Source of the DNA: a virus
Reading direction: 5' to 3' (one strand)
DNA: 39,708 bases
Virus record (IMG/VR): IMGVR_UViG_3300045988_140580
The notes under the pieces were generated by a model that had not been told where the DNA came from, did not search any database, and worked only from the letters and a program-made list of their open reading frames with translations. A program made the translations under genes and the position numbers. Of this stretch, positions 181 through 39,335 are shown piece after piece (position 1 is the stretch's first letter; each line of letters starts with the position of its first letter).

Positions 181-1263
181 TCACGGGTAACTCCATGTTA
201 CTCGGTTGTCTGTGGAGTGTGTGTAGTATTTCAGAGTAGTTTCTATACTACTGTGACCCATCAGTTTGCTTACTCTCATAACGTCTACATGTTTCTCAGT
301 TATGAGTAGGGTAGCAAAAGTATGTCTCATGTCGTACAGGTGGTGTCCTCTACCCAGTACGGCATGGGTATACTTTTTGAATCGCATATTTACATTATCG
401 ACACTCATATAACCATACTGGCTCTTGAAGGAATAGAAGATATTATCCTTTGGGAGCCTTTTTATATTACTTACTAACCACTTACCATACTGCTCTTTGT
501 CTATCGGTACTATCCTATAACTGCTATCCTGTGTCTTCATCCCATCCTGTAGTTTTCCTCTGAATCCCAGGGATTTGTTGAAGTTCACATAGTTTTCCGT
601 AACATCTTCCTTGGTAAGCGCGAGTATTTCCTGTGGTCGTGCCCCAGTTATCATACCGATTACTATGTATATTTGGTAGACTAGGGGAAGCTTAGTAGAC
701 AAAGTTTTTTTATCTAGCAGCTTACTGACTTCCTCACTGGAGAATGTACGTATGTGTCTTTTGGGTTTACCCTTGATGGTCCTTATGGCACCTCTGCTTG
801 TCATTGGATTATTATCAAGGTATCCCTCGTATACCGCGGTTTCCAGTATAGCTTTGAAGTTCTTTCTCCATCTTGACAGGGTAGAAGTAGCGTAGCCATG
901 GGAAGCCAGACCTAGGAAATACCTATTGATATCCTGTGTAGTCAGATCATAAAACTTTGTCTTAGCTAACTTACTGCCTACTACATGTTTGTTATAGAAA
1001 TGCTTGATACCATTTAAGGTAGACTCACGATACACATTTTCCTTCAGTTCTATGAAGTGTTCCCAATATTCCTCTATGGTAGTAGGGGTGAAGTACTTTA
1101 TGTTTGTTCCTCGTACCTTATCAAAAAACTGCTCAACTTCCTGTCGGGTATCACACGTTTTACTAACTCGCTTACCATTACCGATGCATATAGCACCTTT
1201 GAATTTTCCATTTGGTGTCCTTGTTATAGAACCAGTACCTTTTTCTCTTCTTATTCTTTTCAT
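181..1263 (-). CDS. int: Tyrosine recombinase / phage integrase
   Basis: 360-aa ORF. The C-terminal catalytic region reads HDMRHTFATLL...LMGHSSIETTLKYYTH (R..HxxR..Y tyrosine recombinase motifs), and ARPQEILAL supplies the box A arginine. An RBS GAAAGGTGA lies upstream on the minus strand. It is the only large gene on the minus strand. Confidence 0.93.
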   Translation of the reverse strand: MKRIRREKGTGSITRTPNGKFKGAICIGNGKRVSKTCDTRQEVEQFFDKVRGTNIKYFTPTTIEEYWEHFIELKENVYRESTLNGIKHFYNKHVVGSKLAKTKFYDLTTQDINRYFLGLASHGYATSTLSRWRKNFKAILETAVYEGYLDNNPMTSRGAIRTIKGKPKRHIRTFSSEEVSKLLDKKTLSTKLPLVYQIYIVIGMITGARPQEILALTKEDVTENYVNFNKSLGFRGKLQDGMKTQDSSYRIVPIDKEQYGKWLVSNIKRLPKDNIFYSFKSQYGYMSVDNVNMRFKKYTHAVLGRGHHLYDMRHTFATLLITEKHVDVMRVSKLMGHSSIETTLKYYTHSTDNRVTWSYP

Positions 1264-5005: not shown

Positions 5006-5035
5006 ATATATAAATGCATGAACAAACGTTCTGTT

Positions 5036-5058
5036 AATTGTCCCACTATTAAGAGAAA
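5036..5058 (+). promoter_or_regulatory. Phage-RNAP promoter P1 (variant): ATTGTCCCACTATTAAGAGAAAT, followed by a degenerate copy ATTTGTCCCTTATTTAGAAAGG
   Basis: Member of a 4-copy family sharing ATTGTCCCACTAT(T/C)AAGAGA. Immediately upstream of the RNAP start codon. Confidence 0.6.
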
Positions 5059-5095
5059 TATAATTTGTCCCTTATTTAGAAAGGTGGTTAAAAAT

Positions 5096-7636
5096 ATGTA
5101 TACGCTGGAACAACAATTGGAAGTTGAAAAAATGTATAAGACAGTAGCGGAAGATTCCTTTTTTTCAAAATTGAATCAAGACAAGCAAGAAGGTAACTAT
5201 TCTAGAAGTTCCATAGGTAAAGGAATTATAAAGCAGGTTATGGCACCTTTTACAAAAAACATACACATAAAACTACAGGAAGTCACACTGAGTAAAAAAG
5301 GAGTAAAACCTAAATATTATGCAGTTCTCAAAAAATTCATGGATTACTATATAAACGACATGGATACTTTTGTTAATACATTAGCATTACAAACAATAAA
5401 GGTAGTAGTAAACAACATTGCTACCAATAGAAAAAACTGCAATATGATAGCTAGTGTTATAGGTACAGAACTACAAGATGAAGTAGAATTATATGCCTTT
5501 ATGCATACTGTCGAACATGCAGAAACAAGATATAGTAAAGACATAAATAAACGTGTAGGGAGGAGTTTCAAGAAGAATTTTATCTTACATGCATATCAAG
5601 GGAATGATTTTGTATTTCCTAAATTCAAAAAAACGGAGCTTACAGCTTTAGGCATGGAAATGATAGCTATACTTACAGAATCAGTAGACTTTTTCTACAT
5701 AGCTATGACAGGCGAAAAAGGTTTATTGGAGTTACATCCTAGTGATATGTTTTTACAAGCTGTCATAAAGTCGGAAGAAAACATTATGTCTAGGACGGTT
5801 AAATTAGTACCAACTATAATACCTCCTAAAGCATGGAAAGGAATATTTGAAGGAGGGTATTATGGGGCGTTAGGTATCCAAAATAGATTTATGCGTCATC
5901 ATCCCTATATGAAAGGCACAAAAACATTAAGTAGATACCTGGCACGGCTTAATGAATTAGACCTAACACCTATTTACAGAGCAGTTAATAGGATCCAGAA
6001 CACTGCCTATCATATCAATAGTTATATGCTCGATGTAGTAGGTTCTATATTAGAAAGCGGTGGAAATAGGGCAGGTATACCCCAGATGAAACCATATGAA
6101 AAACTTCCGGCTTTTCCGTATGGAGACAAAGAGATAGAAGAGTCTGAGGAATTGCAAGTGCTATTTAAAGAACATAAGAAGAAAATGATAACCATGATAC
6201 ATAAAGAAAACCAGAGACAAGGCAAGGCGCTAAGGTGCACCATGGTGTACAAATTAGCTAAAGATTTTAGCAGATTTGAGACAATATACTTCCCAATGAA
6301 TATTGATTTTCGAGGGCGTATATATCCCATTCCTACGGGTCTTAATCCACAGGGGGATGATATGACAAAAGGTTTACTGGAATATGCTTTTCCTAAAGCT
6401 GTGTCTAGTGAAGATTCCTTGCAATGGCTTATGATTCACGGTGCAGGGTTAGCAGGGCACGATAAAATTTGTCTGGATGAACGTGTACAATGGGTACAGG
6501 ATAACAAAGATAACATTGTAAATAGTGTCGATAATCCCATAGGGTACACATGGTGGCAAGAGCAGGATAAACCTTTCCAGTTCCTAGCGTGGTGCAGGGA
6601 ATACGTCAATGCCTTAGCTTATATGTTTGCACACAATGGCTCTTTAATAGGGTTCGAGTGTCATTGTGTAATAGCATATGACGGTACCTGCTCTGGACTT
6701 CAGCATTACTCTGCATTACTGAGAGATCCTGTTGGTGGCAGTGCGGTAAATCTGGTGGACCATGATAAGCCTAGTGATATTTATCAGGAAGTAGCAAATA
6801 AAGTTCTGATATCAGTAGAGAATGATTCTCATAATGGCACTATAGAAGATACAGACAGAAAAGGAAATAAGATACCTGGTACAAAAGCAATAGCGGAAGC
6901 ATGGCTTGCACATGGTATCACACGGAAAGTTTGTAAACGCCCTGTAATGACACTAGCCTATGGATCTGGGCAATATGGTTTTGGGGACCAGATTTTTGAA
7001 GATACGACAAAAGACAATCCCTTCTTTAATGGTGTAGGTGACTTCAGGGCAGCTAGATATATGGCTAGTAAGGTATGGGAGACTGTACAGACAACTGTAG
7101 TTTCTGCTACACAGGGCATGTCTTTTCTTAAGGAGTTAGCTAATGAGTTAGCGTCTGATAATATGCCTGTAGAATGGATTACACCGTTGGGATTGCCTGT
7201 ACAACAGATGTATCTTGATTTACATACGGAATGCTTCAGGTTACGGTTTGGTGGTGCCAGTGTGCGCTATCGTATATATGTTACAGAGCCGAAGGAAGGG
7301 GAAGACACAGACAAAAAGAAGCAGGTGTCTGGTGTTGCTCCTAACTTCATTCACTCCCTAGATGCTACTCACTTGATGATGTCTGTTAATGCTTGTGAGA
7401 ATGTGTCTAACTTCACTACGGTCCATGATTCATTTGGTACGTCATTAGGTGAAGCAGAGGAGCTGAGAGAAGTTATTAGACAGCAAATGGTTAAATTGTA
7501 TAGTGAAAATGAGCCACTAAAAGATTTTAAAGCTCATGCTGAAGAATTGCTAGGCAAACATATTGATATAGATTTACCCCGAAAAGGCACATTAGATATC
7601 AATTCTATTTTGTCTAGCAAATTTGTGTTTCACTAA
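5096..7636 (+). CDS. T7-like single-subunit DNA-dependent RNA polymerase
   Basis: The 846-aa protein has TTVHDSFGT (T7 RNAP motif C HDSFGT) and a palm/fingers region similar to T7 gene 1. The start is ATG 5096 after AAAGGTGG; the track's upstream ATG 5018 would place promoter P1 inside the gene. Confidence 0.95.
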   Translation: MYTLEQQLEVEKMYKTVAEDSFFSKLNQDKQEGNYSRSSIGKGIIKQVMAPFTKNIHIKLQEVTLSKKGVKPKYYAVLKKFMDYYINDMDTFVNTLALQTIKVVVNNIATNRKNCNMIASVIGTELQDEVELYAFMHTVEHAETRYSKDINKRVGRSFKKNFILHAYQGNDFVFPKFKKTELTALGMEMIAILTESVDFFYIAMTGEKGLLELHPSDMFLQAVIKSEENIMSRTVKLVPTIIPPKAWKGIFEGGYYGALGIQNRFMRHHPYMKGTKTLSRYLARLNELDLTPIYRAVNRIQNTAYHINSYMLDVVGSILESGGNRAGIPQMKPYEKLPAFPYGDKEIEESEELQVLFKEHKKKMITMIHKENQRQGKALRCTMVYKLAKDFSRFETIYFPMNIDFRGRIYPIPTGLNPQGDDMTKGLLEYAFPKAVSSEDSLQWLMIHGAGLAGHDKICLDERVQWVQDNKDNIVNSVDNPIGYTWWQEQDKPFQFLAWCREYVNALAYMFAHNGSLIGFECHCVIAYDGTCSGLQHYSALLRDPVGGSAVNLVDHDKPSDIYQEVANKVLISVENDSHNGTIEDTDRKGNKIPGTKAIAEAWLAHGITRKVCKRPVMTLAYGSGQYGFGDQIFEDTTKDNPFFNGVGDFRAARYMASKVWETVQTTVVSATQGMSFLKELANELASDNMPVEWITPLGLPVQQMYLDLHTECFRLRFGGASVRYRIYVTEPKEGEDTDKKKQVSGVAPNFIHSLDATHLMMSVNACENVSNFTTVHDSFGTSLGEAEELREVIRQQMVKLYSENEPLKDFKAHAEELLGKHIDIDLPRKGTLDINSILSSKFVFH

Positions 7637-12197: not shown

Positions 12198-12458
12198 ATG
12201 ACGTTTACATTACATGTTATTAAAGGTTGTGCATACTGTGATGCTATTTTGTCTTTATATCCATCATTGGTAAAGAGATATCCTAAGTTATATTTCAATA
12301 TGAAATGTGATGAAAGTGCAAATGAGGGTACAGTATATCCATATATTGAAGCATATCATCTTGATGTTGACGGTGTGTATAGAGACAAAAAAGATTCCAT
12401 GCTATACATCAATGATGTTGTAGATTTTGTAGAAAGGAGTCTTAATAAAGGTAAATGA
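12198..12458 (+). CDS. Glutaredoxin/NrdH-like thioredoxin-fold protein
   Basis: CAYC (CxxC) after the first beta-strand. Lies between nrdG and nrdD. ATG 12198 follows AGGTGG. Confidence 0.5.
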   Translation: MTFTLHVIKGCAYCDAILSLYPSLVKRYPKLYFNMKCDESANEGTVYPYIEAYHLDVDGVYRDKKDSMLYINDVVDFVERSLNKGK

Positions 12459-14218
12459 TTTTGAACTTAACTCCTGATCAGATACAGGGGAAGATTGATT
12501 ATATTAAGAAGTATTCACAAGCGTCCAATAGTGCTGATGGTTCATTAGTTGATAGTAATGCTAATGTAGACACAAAAAACATAGGCATTCTGGAAGCGGA
12601 ACTGTATAAGCCAGAGACGATTCAGATTAATAGAGAGATTGTGAAGCAAAAGTTAGACAGCATGTTTCCTGGACTAGGAGCACAGTATATCAAGGACATA
12701 GAAAGTCACTTTATTTATATCCATGATGAAACGTCCTTGCGTCCCTACTGTGCTTCTATTACCTTGTTTCCTTTCCTGCTAAATGGTACTAAACCTCTGG
12801 GTGGGACAAGCAAAGCACCAAAGAACCTGCATAGTTTTTGTGGATCATTCATTAATCTTGTCTATCAGGTAGCGTCTGGTTTTGCAGGTGCTGTGGCTAC
12901 TGTCGAATTTCTGCTATATTTTGATTATTTTGCGAGAAAGACATATGGCAGTGCTTACATAACTACTAACAAGAAAGAGGTAGAACAGGCCCTACAGGGT
13001 GTTGTATATGCCTTGAATCAGCCTGCTAGTGCACGGGGAAATCAGAGCGTGTTCTGGAATATCTCTGTATTAGACAAGCATTATTTTGAGCACCTATTTG
13101 GTACATTTCATTTTCCGGATGGTTCACAGGCTATGTATTATGGTTCATTCCATGATTTGCAGGAGCTTTTTATGGAGTGGTTCAGGAAAGAGAGGGAGAA
13201 AGAGCTACTGACATATCCCGTTTTGACAGCTTCTATGCTTATCAACGATGAGGGCGTTCCTGTAGACACAGAATTTGCAGAGATGTGTGCTGAGGAAATG
13301 TCCAAAGGTCTGAGCTTCTTTGTCTATGAATCACAAAGTGTTGACTCACTTGCTTCCTGTTGTCGATTGCGCAATGAACTGTCTGACAATACGTTTAGCT
13401 ATACACTGGGAGCAGGTGGGGTATCTACAGGTTCCATACAGGTTATTACACTGAACATGAACAGACTCGTACAACAGAAAGACCATACTGTGTCTGACAT
13501 TGTAAAGCGTGTTCATAAGTACCTTCTGGCATACAGGGCAGTGATTGAAGATTACATGAATAGTGGTTTGTTGCCAGCGTATACAGCTGGGTTTATTAAT
13601 CTGGACAAGCAGTTTCTTACTGTTGGTATCAATGGCATGTTGGAAGCTTCTGAGTTCCTGCACGGTAAACCAGACATAGACTTCTATAGAGATACATTGA
13701 AGACTATCTACTTGTTGAATAAAGAGGATGGTCAAAGATACAAAGTTAAATATAATACGGAGTTTGTCCCCGCAGAAAATTTAGGTGTGAAGAATGCAAA
13801 GTGGGACAAAGAAGATGGCTTAGTGGTTCCTAGAGACTGCTATAATTCCTATTTCTTTCCTGTAGAGAGCAGTGAGTACAGCATTATAGACAAACTTGAT
13901 ATGCATGGTTTACGTACTACAGCGTTTCTTGACGGGGGAGCAGCTTGTCATCTTAATTTGGCGCAGTTATTGACTAAGAAACAGGCGTATCAACTAATGT
14001 GTCTTGCAGGTAAGAAGGGCGTTAATTACTGGACATTTAACTGCTTAATGACAATTTGTGACGATTGTGGATATATTGATGTGAACACGGAAAGGCAGTG
14101 CACGAAATGTGGAAGTACCAATGTTGGTTATGCCACTCGTGTCATTGGCTATCTCAAACGTATTGATAGTTTTTCCACAGCACGTCAGAAGGAAGCTTTT
14201 AAACGACATTATACTTAA
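12455..14218 (+). CDS. nrdD: Anaerobic (class III) ribonucleoside-triphosphate reductase NrdD
   Basis: C-terminal zinc ribbon CDDCGY...CTKCGS followed by the glycyl-radical motif ATRVIGYL (RVxGY). Size 587 aa, adjacent to the NrdG-like gene. Confidence 0.75.
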   Translation: MILNLTPDQIQGKIDYIKKYSQASNSADGSLVDSNANVDTKNIGILEAELYKPETIQINREIVKQKLDSMFPGLGAQYIKDIESHFIYIHDETSLRPYCASITLFPFLLNGTKPLGGTSKAPKNLHSFCGSFINLVYQVASGFAGAVATVEFLLYFDYFARKTYGSAYITTNKKEVEQALQGVVYALNQPASARGNQSVFWNISVLDKHYFEHLFGTFHFPDGSQAMYYGSFHDLQELFMEWFRKEREKELLTYPVLTASMLINDEGVPVDTEFAEMCAEEMSKGLSFFVYESQSVDSLASCCRLRNELSDNTFSYTLGAGGVSTGSIQVITLNMNRLVQQKDHTVSDIVKRVHKYLLAYRAVIEDYMNSGLLPAYTAGFINLDKQFLTVGINGMLEASEFLHGKPDIDFYRDTLKTIYLLNKEDGQRYKVKYNTEFVPAENLGVKNAKWDKEDGLVVPRDCYNSYFFPVESSEYSIIDKLDMHGLRTTAFLDGGAACHLNLAQLLTKKQAYQLMCLAGKKGVNYWTFNCLMTICDDCGYIDVNTERQCTKCGSTNVGYATRVIGYLKRIDSFSTARQKEAFKRHYT

Positions 14219-34840: not shown

Positions 34841-35044
34841 ATGAAAAACTATATTATTCGTATGCAGGATGAACGTGCGAAATTAGAAACTAAATGGGAC
34901 AAACTTATTAAATATGTGAGCGAGCATTATGATAACCTTGATGGAACAGAAATATACTTGATGCAACAGCAAATTAAGTGTATGGAAAAATATATCATGT
35001 TTCTTAACGCTCGTATTGATCATGCTAAACTCAAAGAAAAGTAA
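34841..35044 (+). CDS. Hypothetical small protein (67 aa)
   Basis: RBS AGGAGAATGA. No TM segment. Confidence 0.45.
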   Translation: MKNYIIRMQDERAKLETKWDKLIKYVSEHYDNLDGTEIYLMQQQIKCMEKYIMFLNARIDHAKLKEK

Positions 35045-35058
35045 AAGGACGATGAAAA

Positions 35059-35529
35059 ATGAAACGAGGTTCGCTAACTAATATGATTAACACAATATGG
35101 AACTTATGGACAGCCACAGAAGTTAAGATTGGCTGTCTTTTTTCTATCCTCTGGCTAGCGTTCAATACACTTGTAGGGGGTGTGGATGACCAGATACAGG
35201 CCCTTGTCATTCTTGTGTCTTTAGACATACTGACTGGCATGGTTGCATCTTGTAAATCACACTCCTTTGTGAGTGCCATCGCTACGAGAGGACTTTGTAA
35301 GAAAGCTGTTATGTTCTTAGTCATTGGTCTGGGTGTCTTACTGGACAGTGCCATGCATACACATATGATCCGCACGATGTTCATAGGGGCCTATGCGATT
35401 GTAGAGGCCATGAGTATCTTAGAGAACATAGACAAACTGGGGTATGGACACTATATCCCGAATTTTATACGAAATGCTTTGGCTCAGATTGCTAGAGAAA
35501 AGCATGTGGAAAAGGAAGGGGACAAATAG
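35059..35529 (+). CDS. Holin (multi-TM, about 3-4 TM segments)
   Basis: Several hydrophobic helices: CLFSILWLAFNTLVGGV, ALVILVSLDILTGMVAS and AVMFLVIGLGVLL. Charged C-terminus. Immediately upstream of the endolysin. Confidence 0.65.
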   Translation: MKRGSLTNMINTIWNLWTATEVKIGCLFSILWLAFNTLVGGVDDQIQALVILVSLDILTGMVASCKSHSFVSAIATRGLCKKAVMFLVIGLGVLLDSAMHTHMIRTMFIGAYAIVEAMSILENIDKLGYGHYIPNFIRNALAQIAREKHVEKEGDK

Positions 35530-35591: not shown

Positions 35592-35729
35592 AATGATTGA
35601 TATTTCTGCAATACTCAACAGTTGCTTTTTGTGTTTCTTTTTCGCTACTATCCTTCACACACGCATAGATGAAAAAGACACCTGTACAATTATTCTTTGT
35701 TTTATTTGGTTACAATGTATTATCCTTAG
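35592..35729 (+). CDS. Small hydrophobic Cys-rich peptide (45 aa), not in track. Possible antiholin or membrane peptide.
   Basis: ATG 35592 after AAAAGGTGGTG. Hand translation gives MIDISAILNSCFLCFFFATILHTRIDEKDTCTIILCFYLVTMYYP*. Confidence 0.3.
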
Positions 35730-35769
35730 TTTATTTTATACTGTTATTAAACAAGGGGGTGTTATTTAG

Positions 35770-36369: not shown

Positions 36370-36558
36370 ATGTACAAGAACCTACGCAAGCAACTTTGCA
36401 AAGAGATTAATAAAATGGATGACCATATGTTTATCCTTCATTTAGCTTGCTTGGATATGATAGATACAGAAATTGTTGATAAAATTATTGATTTTAAAAG
36501 ATTAAAAGACGAAGCAGATAAGATTGAGAAAAACTTAGAAAAAAGGAGTAGGGAATGA
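36370..36558 (+). CDS. Hypothetical small protein (62 aa)
   Basis: ORF between the endolysin and the spanin-like genes. Confidence 0.4.
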   Translation: MYKNLRKQLCKEINKMDDHMFILHLACLDMIDTEIVDKIIDFKRLKDEADKIEKNLEKRSRE

Positions 36559-36953
36559 ATGAAGATAAAATCAAATATGCTGAAAAGATCGTTGCTGTCT
36601 GCATTATTGGTTGTCTCGCTATCTTCTGTCTCTTTTGCGTCTACAACTACCTATCCGCAGACAAATCAGCAGACGATCACAATGACACTATCACAATACA
36701 ACGAATTGAAGATGAACATAGACAGCTTGGAGATGAACTTGCAGATATTAGAACAGAACTCCAGTACGGACAAGAAGCAGTTAATAGAGCTGAGGAACGA
36801 GTTGGAGACCTGCAAGAGTCAAATGCTGTTAGCGCAGAAAAGCTCAGAGAAAGCAGAGAACTTATTGAAAGAAGTAGAAACATCTTTAAAGACGTTGACA
36901 GAGCAAATGGACTCCCTGAAGCACAAACTGGCAGTGAAGGAACGACAAAATAA
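36555..36953 (+). CDS. i-spanin-like protein (N-terminal TM plus charged coiled-coil periplasmic domain)
   Basis: TM segment IVAVCIIGCLAIFCLFCVYNYL followed by an E/R-rich helical region. Position after the lysozyme. Confidence 0.5.
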   Translation: MNEDKIKYAEKIVAVCIIGCLAIFCLFCVYNYLSADKSADDHNDTITIQRIEDEHRQLGDELADIRTELQYGQEAVNRAEERVGDLQESNAVSAEKLRESRELIERSRNIFKDVDRANGLPEAQTGSEGTTK

Positions 36954-37005
36954 ACTGGCGTGGTCTGTTGCAGGTGGTCTTCTGATTGGTCTGGTTGCGA
37001 AATAA
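36577..37005 (+). CDS. Embedded alternative-frame ORF: signal peptide, coiled coil and C-terminal TM (o-spanin or u-spanin-like), fully overlapping the i-spanin-like gene
   Basis: MLKRSLLSALLVVSLSSVSFAST signal-like N-terminus and a C-terminal LAWSVAGGLLIGLVAK. It forms a 140+ codon open frame inside another gene in AT-rich DNA. No lipobox Cys is seen. Confidence 0.4.
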   Translation: MLKRSLLSALLVVSLSSVSFASTTTYPQTNQQTITMTLSQYNELKMNIDSLEMNLQILEQNSSTDKKQLIELRNELETCKSQMLLAQKSSEKAENLLKEVETSLKTLTEQMDSLKHKLAVKERQNKLAWSVAGGLLIGLVAK

Positions 37006-37095: not shown

Positions 37096-37296
37096 ATGAA
37101 AGTACGTATGAAAAATATAGAGAAACCATCAATGGCTAAGGCAATCCGTGAGAAATGTATAGATTGTTGTTGTGGAGACACAGCAGAAGTACGGAAATGT
37201 ATTTTGGATAGATGTCCTCTGTTTCCATACCGATTCGGATGTAATCCCAAAAGCTATATAAACAGGAACAGAGATATCGTTAAAATTATTCCCTAG
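37096..37296 (+). CDS. Small Cys-rich (putative zinc-binding) protein (66 aa)
   Basis: CIDCCCGD...CILDRC...GC. RBS GAGGAG. Confidence 0.45.
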   Translation: MKVRMKNIEKPSMAKAIREKCIDCCCGDTAEVRKCILDRCPLFPYRFGCNPKSYINRNRDIVKIIP

Positions 37297-37324: not shown

Positions 37325-37371
37325 AAGGCTCCCTCTAGGTGTAATTACCTATGGAGCCTTTTATTATTTTT
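37325..37371 (+). terminator. Interrupted hairpin (AAGGCTCC..TAGGT..ACCTA..GGAGCCTT) followed by TTATTATTTTT
   Basis: Arms at 37325-37332 / 37353-37360 with an inner TAGGT/ACCTA pairing, then a T-run. Confidence 0.6.
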
Positions 37372-37651: not shown

Positions 37652-39335
37652 TGACGCTAAGAAAGATTTTCGTAAGTTTCTGTTCATTTTATGGGATGAG
37701 ATTGCGCTCCCTGAGCCTACAGGCATACAATATGCCATAGCGTCATTATTGATGAAATGCCCACAGAAACGATTCATTATAGAAGGATTCCGTGGTGTAG
37801 CTAAGTCGTTTATTACATGTGCTTATATTGTTTGGTGTCTATGGAATAACCCGCAGCTGAAATGCTTGATAGTGTCTGCTAGTAAGGATAGAGCGGATGC
37901 TAATGCGGTATTCATACGACGTATCATTTACTTACTAGACTTTTTGTCTGATCTTAAGCCTAGAGATGGTCAACGTAATACACAGAACCTTTTTGATGTT
38001 GGCTTAGCAATACCTGATATTTCTCCTTCTGTAAAATCCGTTGGTATTACAGGTCAGATAACAGGCAGCCGTGCAGACATATTGGTTGCAGATGACGTAG
38101 AGATACCAAACAATTCCAGTACACAGGTCCGTAGAGACAAACTATTCGAGGATGTAAAAGAATTTGATGCTATTATAAAGCCGGGGGATAGTAGTAAGAT
38201 TATATACCTTGGAACTCCCCAAAATGAGATGTCACTATATAATGAATTACAGAATCGTGGCTATGGTGTCTTTGTATTCCCTATCGTATATCCGGAAACA
38301 CCAGAGGAACGTGAATACTATGGAGACAAATTAGCTCCCTTTATTGCTGAACCGTATGATAGAAATCCGGAGCTATACGCAGGCAAGCCAACAGATCCTA
38401 AACGATTCCCAGAAGAAGAAATTGAAGAACGTAGATTATCCTACGGTAAGGCAGGGTTTTCTTTACAGTTCAAACTGAATACTAACTTGTCTGACTATGA
38501 AAAGTATCCATTAAAAGTACAAGACCTGATTGTCTCAGAAGTGGATTTGGATGAAAGTTCACTGAAGTGGGCATGGGCAAGCAGTTATGAGTACAGATTA
38601 AACTCATTGCCTTGTGTAGCAGTCAAAGGTGATTATTTCTATAGAGAGTTCGGTAGAAGTAAGGAGACAGCTAAATATACAGGTACCGTTATGTCTATAG
38701 ACCCATCTGGTAGGGGAACAGATGAAACTGCTTACTCTATTGTGAAATACCTGAATGGTTATCTTTTTGTAGTAGAAGTAGGTGGTTATTCAGAAGGATA
38801 CTCTGATTCTGTACTGACACAGTTAGCAAATAAAGCAAAAGTGTATGGAGTAAATGAGATTGTCGTAGAAGCTAACTTCGGGGATGGCATGTTTACACAG
38901 TTATTCAAGCCCATACTGAATAAAATACATCCATGCTCCATTCAAGAAGTGAAGAACACTAAGCAGAAAGAAGCTCGTATTATTGATACACTGGAACCTG
39001 TTATGATGAGACACAAGTTAATAGTAGCAGAGTCAGTCATTAAAGATGATTATATAATATATGAAAATAAAGGACAGAATTACTCTCTGATATATCAACT
39101 GACACGCCTAAGCAGAGACAAAGGTTCACTATCACATGATGACCGCCTGGACTCCTTAACAATGGCTGTGTCGTATTGGTTAGAAGTTATGGATAGGGAT
39201 GAGCAAGTAGGGATGGATGAACAACTGGATGACTTTCTAGAAGCAGCTATGGATGATGACAGGGGCATCTTCTCACTGATGTATGGTAATACCGATATGA
39301 ATAAAAATAGGAATATAATGAATAAAAAATGGTAG
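37620..39335 (+). CDS. Terminase large subunit, T7 gp19-like. The conserved N-terminus is encoded upstream of the track's start, with no canonical start codon.
   Basis: Very high identity to T7 gp19 (FRGVAKSFITCAYIVW, LIVSASKDRADAN, SPSVKSVGITGQITGSRADI, IYLGTPQ, YGKAGFSLQF, IDPSGRGTDETAY). The frame is open from 37620 and encodes LLTQWTQEQIDDAKKDFRKFLFILW, which aligns with T7 MSTQ...DFVAFLFVLW. The first in-frame ATG is at 37752. Confidence 0.9.
   Translation: MLTQWTQEQIDDAKKDFRKFLFILWDEIALPEPTGIQYAIASLLMKCPQKRFIIEGFRGVAKSFITCAYIVWCLWNNPQLKCLIVSASKDRADANAVFIRRIIYLLDFLSDLKPRDGQRNTQNLFDVGLAIPDISPSVKSVGITGQITGSRADILVADDVEIPNNSSTQVRRDKLFEDVKEFDAIIKPGDSSKIIYLGTPQNEMSLYNELQNRGYGVFVFPIVYPETPEEREYYGDKLAPFIAEPYDRNPELYAGKPTDPKRFPEEEIEERRLSYGKAGFSLQFKLNTNLSDYEKYPLKVQDLIVSEVDLDESSLKWAWASSYEYRLNSLPCVAVKGDYFYREFGRSKETAKYTGTVMSIDPSGRGTDETAYSIVKYLNGYLFVVEVGGYSEGYSDSVLTQLANKAKVYGVNEIVVEANFGDGMFTQLFKPILNKIHPCSIQEVKNTKQKEARIIDTLEPVMMRHKLIVAESVIKDDYIIYENKGQNYSLIYQLTRLSRDKGSLSHDDRLDSLTMAVSYWLEVMDRDEQVGMDEQLDDFLEAAMDDDRGIFSLMYGNTDMNKNRNIMNKKW

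Follow-up and report, generated by a model that had tools for sequence, protein, structure and literature searches.

The DNA of IMG/VR virus record IMGVR_UViG_3300045988_140580, a stretch of 39,708 nucleotides (nt) hereafter called the window, carries at the end of its lysis cassette two genes, here named A and B, which are read from the same strand in different frames and share nearly the whole of A. From the comparison of related loci we consider it near certain that both frames are coding. A is predicted to be an inner-membrane protein of the kind found in inner-membrane spanins (i-spanins), and B an exported coiled-coil protein ending in a hydrophobic anchor and devoid of a lipobox; the best overall explanation for this two-frame pair, with in our judgement a slightly better than even chance of being right, is a spanin equivalent that works without a lipoprotein.

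Two genes in one stretch of DNA

Frame B lies in the +1 frame with respect to A, and the genes and their initiation signal are located as follows.

36555..36953, + strand: gene A, 132 amino acids (aa), ATG start, TAA stop at 36951-36953
36559..37005, + strand: gene B, 148 aa, ATG start, stop at 37003-37005
36543..36548, + strand: shared Shine-Dalgarno sequence AAGGAG, 6 nt before the start of A and 10 nt before that of B

The pair begins 189 nt downstream of the GH25 endolysin gene, and both open reading frames (ORFs) appear in the ORF list where an earlier interpretation of the letters alone (the sequence-only reading) had placed them. B had been described there as fully contained in A; the extensive overlap is real (395 nt, ~99% of A, beginning at its codon 2), the nesting is not, since B overhangs A by 52 nt. 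This private stretch encodes exactly the C-terminal hydrophobic segment of B, and the TAA of A falls within the Asn-Lys codons AAT-AAA of B. The two start codons are 4 nt apart (ATGAATG) and have one Shine-Dalgarno sequence for both, in an initiation region that is unstructured (fold z = +0.97); the alternative B start, ATG at 36577, has no Shine-Dalgarno sequence, and the ATG at 36559 appears from these signals to be the better one.

The probability of finding such an arrangement by chance was assessed by recoding, in which one protein was kept fixed and its synonymous codons were redrawn from the phage codon usage (3000 trials, five lineages). With the B protein of the window recoded, frame A had an average of 12.5 stops and was open in 0/3000 trials; with the A protein recoded, frame B averaged 7.3 stops and was likewise open in 0/3000. 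Across the five lineages 10.7-12.8 stops were predicted in A given B and 5.7-9.7 in B given A, the partner frame remaining open in at most 1/3000 trials per lineage, which bears out the earlier claim that an open second frame of this length is improbable by chance.

Both frames are open in 33/33 close or moderately related loci, and also in 11 lineages (L009, L010, L011, L023, L034, L036, L037 and L039-L042) in which B identity falls to ~25%, the limit of detectable B similarity. A frame B interrupted by stops in related phages had been named as an observation that would speak against the pair; B was open in every relative. Among 65 distinct IMG/VR loci the open stretch of the A frame measures 125-165 aa, always with an N-terminal hydrophobic transmembrane helix; five apparent A-frame stops in this set are effects of where the boundaries of the compared region fell (a B start placed too far upstream, or an A ending ~100 nt before B). 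The third forward frame, taken as a control, contains 15-22 stops in the 11-lineage set and 6-21 in the core of the 65 IMG/VR loci.

Divergence per position in the overlap, calculated within the close group, was 0.046 for A1/B3 (first codon position of A, third of B), 0.029 for A3/B2 and 0.011 for A2/B1; four flanking control genes displayed the classical pattern, with position 3 (0.06-0.13) far above position 1 and this above position 2. The fastest class of the overlap (B3) is 2-2.5 times slower than the third positions of the flanking genes, and the codon-position divergence of the overlap is abnormal for either frame alone. When 47 polymorphisms of the overlap were classed by their effect in each frame, the classes deviated from random mutation (chi-square p = 4e-4): no stops were found against 4.1 expected, changes non-synonymous in both frames occurred at 0.61x of the random-mutation expectation and those non-synonymous in A and synonymous in B at 2.0x. 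In deeper comparisons the synonymous sites of A are nearly frozen, codon identity among identical residues being 0.74-0.86 vs 0.43-0.60 for the controls.

The overlap DNA remains 95.5-98.7% identical between genomes in which the identity of the endolysin, holin or terminase drops to 65-79%; dual coding may impose extra constraint here, the module may have been exchanged in mosaic fashion, or both may contribute. In L006, L017 and L019 the overlap is 96-97% identical, the holin and endolysin 71-79% and the terminase ~65-70%.

Three arrangements of the start codons were found. In the window and in Megasphaera hexanoica it is ATG-N-ATG, with A first and B at +4. In the second, N-T-G-T-G, B comes first and the GTG of A follows at +2; 45/109 representatives of the B family (41%) begin with MW or MC, that is with ATGTG, because this string embeds a GTG start for A. 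In the third, displayed by the largest IMG/VR subgroup, the start of A is displaced 30-45 nt upstream and the Shine-Dalgarno sequence of B (GAGGAGG) lies within the K-E-E-V codons of A. A single Shine-Dalgarno sequence followed by two nearby out-of-frame starts is also present in several other lineages; as a universal rule, one ribosome-binding site with two starts 2-11 nt apart is ruled out by the largest IMG/VR subgroup, given its A start ~30-45 nt upstream. Programmed frameshifting is not needed, each frame having its own start, and an A-to-B fusion allele (P0080) is the product of a DNA indel.

In this allele (L043:758-1282, also in L044 and L045) a 1-nt-class indel swaps the frames and gives one 171-aa ORF, joining the N-terminal transmembrane helix of A to the C-terminal two-thirds of B, anchor included; the B signal-peptide half (801-998) and the A C-terminal half (1066-1218) are left as fragments. 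Since it occurs on three independent contigs from three samples, it is not a sequencing error; the prophage carrying it could be in decay, or the allele could be a form of the module that is "unimolecular".

The proteins encoded by the pair

The segments of both proteins that are discussed below are encoded at these positions.

36588..36644, + strand: A transmembrane helix, residues 12-30, IVAVCIIGCLAIFCLFCVY, summed Hessa scale -3.95
36885..36914, + strand: A C-terminal motif FKDVDRANGL, consensus hydrophobic-(D/E)-x-A-N
36559..36639, + strand: B signal peptide, residues 1-27, with signal peptidase I cleavage predicted between SFA and STTT
36811..36813, + strand: B Cys85, the single periplasmic Cys, motif x-D/E-C-K/R, invariant in a 5-lineage alignment
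36937..36954, + strand: B basic juxtamembrane cluster KERQNK, which contains the stop codon of A
36955..36999, + strand: B C-terminal hydrophobic segment LAWSVAGGLLIGLVA, followed by K148; the only part of B encoded outside the overlap

A consists of a short N-terminus, a very hydrophobic helix of 19 residues, an acidic domain of ~100 residues and the C-terminal motif; the DNA of the helix (36588..36644) also encodes the signal peptide of B. The equivalent of this helix scores from -0.02 to -4.35 on the Hessa scale across the 11 lineages, and the Kyte-Doolittle maximum of the N-terminal segment is above 1.8 in 65/65 IMG/VR loci. The AlphaFold2 model of A is a single helix (residues 3-117) with a mean predicted local distance difference test (pLDDT) score of 82.7, and the net charge of the ~100-residue domain ranges from -2 to -12. 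Residue A117 is near-invariant over the 11 lineages, whose identity spans 16-66%, and the C-terminal motif around it is also visible in distant loci, making it a candidate for a distal tip or an interaction site. A is therefore modelled as a type II (N-in/C-out) inner-membrane protein with an acidic helical periplasmic domain, i-spanin-like in its predicted architecture; the i-spanin resemblance proposed by the sequence-only reading (an N-terminal transmembrane segment plus a long helix) is borne out by the Hessa score, the helical model and the retention of these features in all lineages.

A lipoprotein nature of A was considered and discarded. The string IIGC (residues 17-20, 36603-36614) matches the lipobox pattern, but it lies in the middle of the helix and ten more hydrophobic residues follow it; it reads IIGC, IISC or IVGC in close relatives and IVGY in L011, and is absent in distant lineages, so that the match is probably due to chance.

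Homologues of A number 35, at 63-95% identity. The best profile match is phrog_18860, of unknown function (E = 1e-8), matched by 7/11 lineages; the only functional label that recurs is "Rz-like spanin", from six PHROGs that match 1-3/11 members each, among the divergent ones (E = 1e-5 to 1e-3). When the A model was compared with BFVD by Foldseek, no match reached E <= 0.001; a lone long helix offers no fold information to such a search.

B belongs to a larger family: an exhaustive profile search at E <= 1e-3 gathered 126 proteins, each representing a cluster of 50% identity and almost all of them 140-170 aa long and aligned end-to-end, with ACT01_07020 of M. hexanoica among the homologues. This family was previously unannotated, related proteins being catalogued as of unknown function (best profile match phrog_15236, E = 6e-5). 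The N-terminus of B divides into the n, h and c regions MKIKSNMLKR, SLLSALLVVSL and SSVSFA/S (the slash marking the cleavage), a Sec-type signal by the -3/-1 rule, and most homologues have a small residue before the first acidic or polar residue at this site (A/D, A/E, A/Q). Behind it follow a Thr-rich mature N-terminus with the family motif P-Q-T-V-T-M-S-x-x-Q-Y-N-x-L-K and a coiled coil with heptad-sized indels in the alignments and an N-S-S/T break; the model of B places helices at 44-67, 72-95 and 99-147, with low confidence (pLDDT 54.5).

No Cys is present in the first 84 residues of the B protein of the window, and a canonical lipobox was detected in only 5/109 representatives. Some homologues read G-F-C-T/D-T-T-T and others G-L-A-A/D-T-T-T at the same site; since the lipobox is so rare and the position of the Cys is taken by A or S in homologues, lipidation is not a property of the family. 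B as a lipoprotein was thus rejected, its signal-peptide Cys being frequent (7% of residues) but not positionally conserved. The abundance of such residues in the signal peptides (F, S, C, Y and W together make up 35%) is explained by the overlap itself, because the xTx codons of A force T-initial codons in B (A2 = B1).

As for the rest of the protein, 25/34 of the core Cys residues among the 109 representatives sit at a Cys85-like position, and 80/109 have no core Cys. An R-Q-R-D/N basic cluster, a W and a C-terminal hydrophobic run close the family alignment: an RQR/RQN-like motif is found in 79/109 representatives and the 12 residues before the hydrophobic segment have a mean net charge of +3.1. 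The segment itself is found in ~90% of representatives and is short and just marginally hydrophobic, with a median Hessa sum of +1.1; the uncharged run is exactly 15 residues long in 58/109, contains ~40% G/A/S and leaves a tail of ~2 residues. It is far less hydrophobic than the helix of A, and its basic residues come before it, not after. The signal-peptide-like N-terminus, the coiled coil, the C-terminal hydrophobic segment and the missing lipobox that had been attributed to B were all seen, and B is accordingly best described, as predicted from its sequence family, as a coiled-coil protein that is exported, lacks a lipobox and carries a hydrophobic anchor at its C-terminus.

Searches of the Pfam, NCBIfam and PDB-sequence collections with the A and B families returned only generic coiled-coil matches below cut-offs, and megablast and tblastn comparisons of the region, both proteins and divergent members with 50,697 GenBank phage records gave no significant match. 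In databases the products are named "hypothetical protein" or, for frame-A homologues at JGI (P0017, P0027), "CHASE3 domain sensor protein", a wrong name given to what is a transmembrane helix followed by a coiled coil. At any one locus a single frame is listed by gene callers, A in the close group and B in most of the distant loci.

Host, lysis cassette and proposed function of the pair

In T7-like phages as well as in unrelated prophage backgrounds, the lysis cassette invariably ends with the A/B pair; the pair is found with GH25 or Amidase_2 endolysins, and in other tailed prophages it adjoins the integrase or the host junction. A 97%-identical copy is present in a 283-kilobase (kb) scaffold of Megasphaera sp. 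AM44-1BH (NZ_QSFA01000002), and a B homologue with 52% identity in a syntenic T7-like prophage of the M. hexanoica chromosome (CP011940). From the bacterial genes at their flanks the hosts were identified as M. paucivorans, M. hexanoica and Phascolarctobacterium faecium, thus two orders of the Negativicutes. The host of the window phage is Megasphaera, of the class Negativicutes, a diderm Firmicute, and the diderm host expected by the sequence-only reading is confirmed by these near-identical and syntenic integrated copies. L014 (CAMNPQ010000056.1, 13.7 kb) also carries the module, at 93% identity; the contig had been assigned to "uncultured Pseudobutyrivibrio sp.", which belongs to the monoderm Lachnospiraceae, and the most likely explanation is a binning error with a phage contig, not a real host.

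LolA and LolB have been found in no Negativicute, and delivery of lipoproteins to the outer membrane may not occur there (Antunes et al., PMC5007114); the Lol system is practically absent from Terrabacteria (Witwinowski et al., bioRxiv 10.1101/2021.05.31.446380). We explain the missing lipobox of B by these hosts without LolA/LolB. Halanaerobiales do possess LolA. A survey of 485 Negativicutes prophages states that their phages must cross two membranes and never mentions spanins, and a literature search covering Negativicutes, Veillonella and Megasphaera turned up no relevant work on spanins.

Kongari et al. (PMC6139136) classified spanin genes as embedded, overlapped or separated, all of them dependent on a lipobox; embedded outer-membrane spanins (o-spanins) typically cover 0.4-1.0 of the i-spanin length, and unimolecular spanins combine a lipoprotein signal, a C-terminal transmembrane domain and a beta-rich periplasmic domain. 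With lambda Rz/Rz1, T7 gp18.5/18.7 and P2 LysB/LysC the pair shares its place as the last lysis-cassette genes of a phage with a diderm host, a first protein predicted to adopt type II topology in the inner membrane and to have a periplasmic domain that is a helical coiled coil, and a second gene shifted by +1 relative to the first, an arrangement described for all three phages (PMC6139136). It differs from them in that B is not a small Pro-rich outer-membrane lipoprotein but a coiled coil of 148 aa with a signal peptidase I signal and a C-terminal segment, in an overlap that takes up ~99% of A from codon 2 (known embedded o-spanins, 0.4-1.0 of the i-spanin), and, in the window lineage, in a ribosome-binding site common to both starts. 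B also resembles T1 gp11 in its N-terminal export signal, candidate C-terminal membrane segment and position at the end of the lysis cassette; gp11, however, needs its lipobox Cys for the outer membrane, whereas B has no conserved lipobox, the periplasmic domain of gp11 is predicted to be mostly beta while that of B is predicted, with low confidence, to be helical and gives coiled-coil profile matches only, and B is always co-encoded with a second protein. Relatives of both proteins were already catalogued as phrog_18860 and phrog_15236, with no function, pairing or overlap recorded.

The proposed resemblance to an embedded Rz/Rz1 pair or to a unimolecular spanin therefore stands in part: A has the i-spanin architecture, by predicted topology, and the pair the gene arrangement of a spanin locus, but B, with no Cys before residue 85 in the window and a lipobox in 5/109 representatives, fails as a lipoprotein, a feature of both classes. 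For this reason the pair most plausibly works like a spanin and is not a member of either known class. The T7 spanin genes lie between genes 18 and 19; in the window the corresponding gap, between the gp18-like gene and that of the large terminase (TerL), is 97 nt, too short to hold an ORF. Scanning the whole window for lipoboxes brought up no o-spanin candidate close to the lysis genes.

Position, topology and host biology together point to a spanin-equivalent role, a call that we place at even or marginally above. In such a role A and B would be late products of one message, accompanying the holin and the GH25 endolysin, the shared ribosome-binding site fixing the A:B ratio in the window lineage. 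A would be anchored in the inner membrane and B exported through its cleavable Sec signal; their ~100-residue helical domains would associate into a periplasm-spanning complex which, once the endolysin has removed the peptidoglycan, would breach the outer membrane. No lipoprotein would be used, because the Negativicutes hosts have no Lol pathway for outer-membrane delivery. B might remain as a type I inner-membrane protein, with the outer membrane engaged by a tip formed of the A C-terminus and the conserved Thr-rich N-terminus of B; alternatively, its Gly/Ala-rich C-terminal helix might escape the inner membrane and insert into the outer one, giving a SNARE-like antiparallel zipper. SNAREs have a layout that resembles that of B, with a coiled coil, a basic stretch and a C-terminal hydrophobic helix. 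That such pairs form a class of lipoprotein-independent machinery for breaching or fusing the outer membrane, specific to phages of Lol-less diderm Firmicutes and synthesised from a shared or coupled initiation site, A staying in the inner membrane and A and B zippering in SNARE-like fashion to pull the membranes together, is an extension we consider unlikely.

Several observations weigh against a spanin-like pair. Neither A nor B has significant sequence homology to characterised spanins (Pfam, NCBIfam, hhalign); an hhalign comparison of the A family with lambda Rz, using a hand-typed Rz sequence, gave a probability of 1.6% and nothing beyond 10 columns of transmembrane helix, and the spanin PHROG matches of A are weak and could just reflect a transmembrane helix plus coiled coil. 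The simplest topology, a signal peptide and a stop-transfer segment, puts both proteins in the inner membrane. Only ~27% of the B representatives have the periplasmic Cys that typifies spanins, where it serves for intermolecular disulfides, and the periplasmic domain of A in the window has none; some other lineages have one in A. On the genetic side, the synonymous sites of B are only slightly more conserved than controls at depth, and the amino acid constraint on A is weak, its identity being 33-42% where that of B is 48-56%. Because the synonymous sites of A are frozen and those of B only slightly slowed, B is the dominant sequence constraint, A being kept as an ORF with defined features and a looser sequence.

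The fast drift of the A amino acid sequence might even suggest that B is the only real gene and that A is open through the composition of B or shared ancestry; changes synonymous in A and non-synonymous in B do occur at the random expectation (11 vs 11.5), and gene callers usually report one frame only. We find this very improbable, since with B fixed and the phage codon usage 11-13 A-frame stops are expected and none is seen in any lineage, the other alternative frame carrying 6-22. Moreover, A always has its N-terminal transmembrane helix and a usable start next to or just upstream of that of B, the W/C bias at the second codon of B (41%) and the composition of its signal peptide are what co-encoding of A requires, and third positions of B diverge 2-2.5 times less than those of flanking genes. 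A milder form of the same idea makes B alone the effector, a lipid-free analogue of a unimolecular spanin with its C-terminal segment anchored in one membrane and its N-terminus reaching the other, and reduces A to an accessory, a chaperone or a weakly functional product. B is indeed the more conserved frame with the larger recognisable family, its topology mirrors that of T1 gp11 (PMC6139136), and the 171-aa fusion allele, with the helix of A and the C-terminal two-thirds of B, suggests that a single chain with two anchors can exist. Retention of the A ORF, its transmembrane helix, its end just before the B anchor and its C-terminal motif in ~75 lineages is not expected of a dispensable frame, however, and the periplasmic domain of gp11 is mainly beta-sheet and its lipid anchor is required; this option is decidedly unlikely in our view.

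A different job for two membrane or periplasmic proteins deserves more attention, although we still regard it as rather unlikely: they might regulate the holin, as in antiholin-like timing, control lysis otherwise, or act in superinfection exclusion or at the envelope as prophage functions that merely chance to lie where the late operon ends. The lack of homology to characterised spanins fits this option, as does the possibility that both proteins sit in the inner membrane; the best sub-threshold match of B, TIGR04211, has a signal peptide and a C-terminal anchor, 8/43 B members weakly match XhlA-type "hemolysin" PHROGs of Firmicute phages, and in prophages the module adjoins the integrase or attachment-site end, where moron genes also gather. 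What B has in common with the TIGR04211 SH3-and-anchor and XhlA-like proteins is the order of its parts, a coiled coil leading through basic juxtamembrane residues to a short hydrophobic helix at the C-terminus and a tail of 1-3 residues; the scores are low (27.7 bits for TIGR04211, whose cut-off is 65, and E = 0.71 for XhlA), and B adds an N-terminal signal peptide. What speaks for the spanin equivalent here is that the module travels with the holin and endolysin across unrelated phage types, that in the T7-like genome it lies within the late operon upstream of the terminator, that the identified hosts are all diderm and no other candidate for disrupting the outer membrane was found in the window, and that two periplasmic coiled coils of ~100 residues are what spanins look like. 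To our knowledge, known antiholins do not resemble such paired coiled coils.

Genomic surroundings and significance

According to Pfam matches the 39.7-kb window is an almost complete temperate podophage of the T7 type, with a family A DNA polymerase and T7-type portal, capsid, nozzle and tail-fibre genes. The following features were located.

181-1263, minus strand: tyrosine integrase (Pfam)
5018-7636: single-subunit RNA polymerase (Pfam)
12455-14218: anaerobic ribonucleotide reductase NrdD (Pfam)
35059..35529, + strand: holin, start of the cassette (Phage_holin_4_1, Pfam E = 1.5e-26)
35593-35769: 58-aa ORF between holin and endolysin, abutting the endolysin start codon
35770..36366, + strand: endolysin, GH25 muramidase, catalytic domain alone (Glyco_hydro_25, Pfam E = 1.4e-22)
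36370-36558: 62-aa ORF whose stop overlaps the start of A (ATGA)
37096-37296: 66-aa Cys-rich ORF directly after the A/B pair, C-x2-C-C-C ... C-x4-C, zinc-ribbon-like
37325..37370, + strand: intrinsic terminator-like hairpin (37325-37360) and U-run, closing the lysis transcription unit after the 66-aa ORF
37749-39335: T7-type large terminase TerL (Pfam)

This T7-like phage has a tyrosine integrase, and Megasphaera chromosomes (L013, L009/L015) contain integrated copies that are near-identical or syntenic. A small ORF at 34841-35044, located after the tail-fibre gene and before the holin, matches a crAss001_48-related family (PF21825, E = 1.3e-15). The 58-aa ORF has two hydrophobic segments and no PHROG match, and might be a second holin or an antiholin component. 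The slot between the endolysin and the A/B pair varies: the 62-aa ORF is missing at the DNA level in most close relatives, a D12-class DNA methyltransferase occupies the slot in the M. hexanoica prophage (L009:7296-7724), and it is empty in L011. The 66-aa Cys-rich ORF, for which no family match was obtained, is kept in L010 and has more distant counterparts in L011 and the prophage of M. hexanoica. The terminator hairpin has a fold energy of -19.8 kcal/mol (z = -5.1), equally stable shuffles being 0/200, and 3' of it come the T7 gp18-like gene and then TerL.

The way in which phages of diderm Firmicutes pass the outer membrane has not been described, and A/B offers a concrete candidate for it: catalogued spanins all rely on a lipoprotein anchor (PMC6139136), whose delivery to the outer membrane is probably impossible in these hosts (PMC5007114), and A/B is probably a previously unrecognised lipoprotein-free device for breaking it. 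Two proteins of ~130-150 aa sharing ~99% of the coding sequence of one partner represent dual coding of unusual extent and age for bacterial viruses, kept in two or more orders of one bacterial class and in phages of several morphotypes, and offer a natural system to study how two coiled coils and two hydrophobic segments fit into the same DNA. Because gene callers report one frame per locus, hundreds of gut-virome genomes miss a gene. Megasphaera, the Veillonella group and Phascolarctobacterium are abundant in gut, mouth and rumen, and the lysis machinery of their phages is relevant to phage engineering and lysin design.

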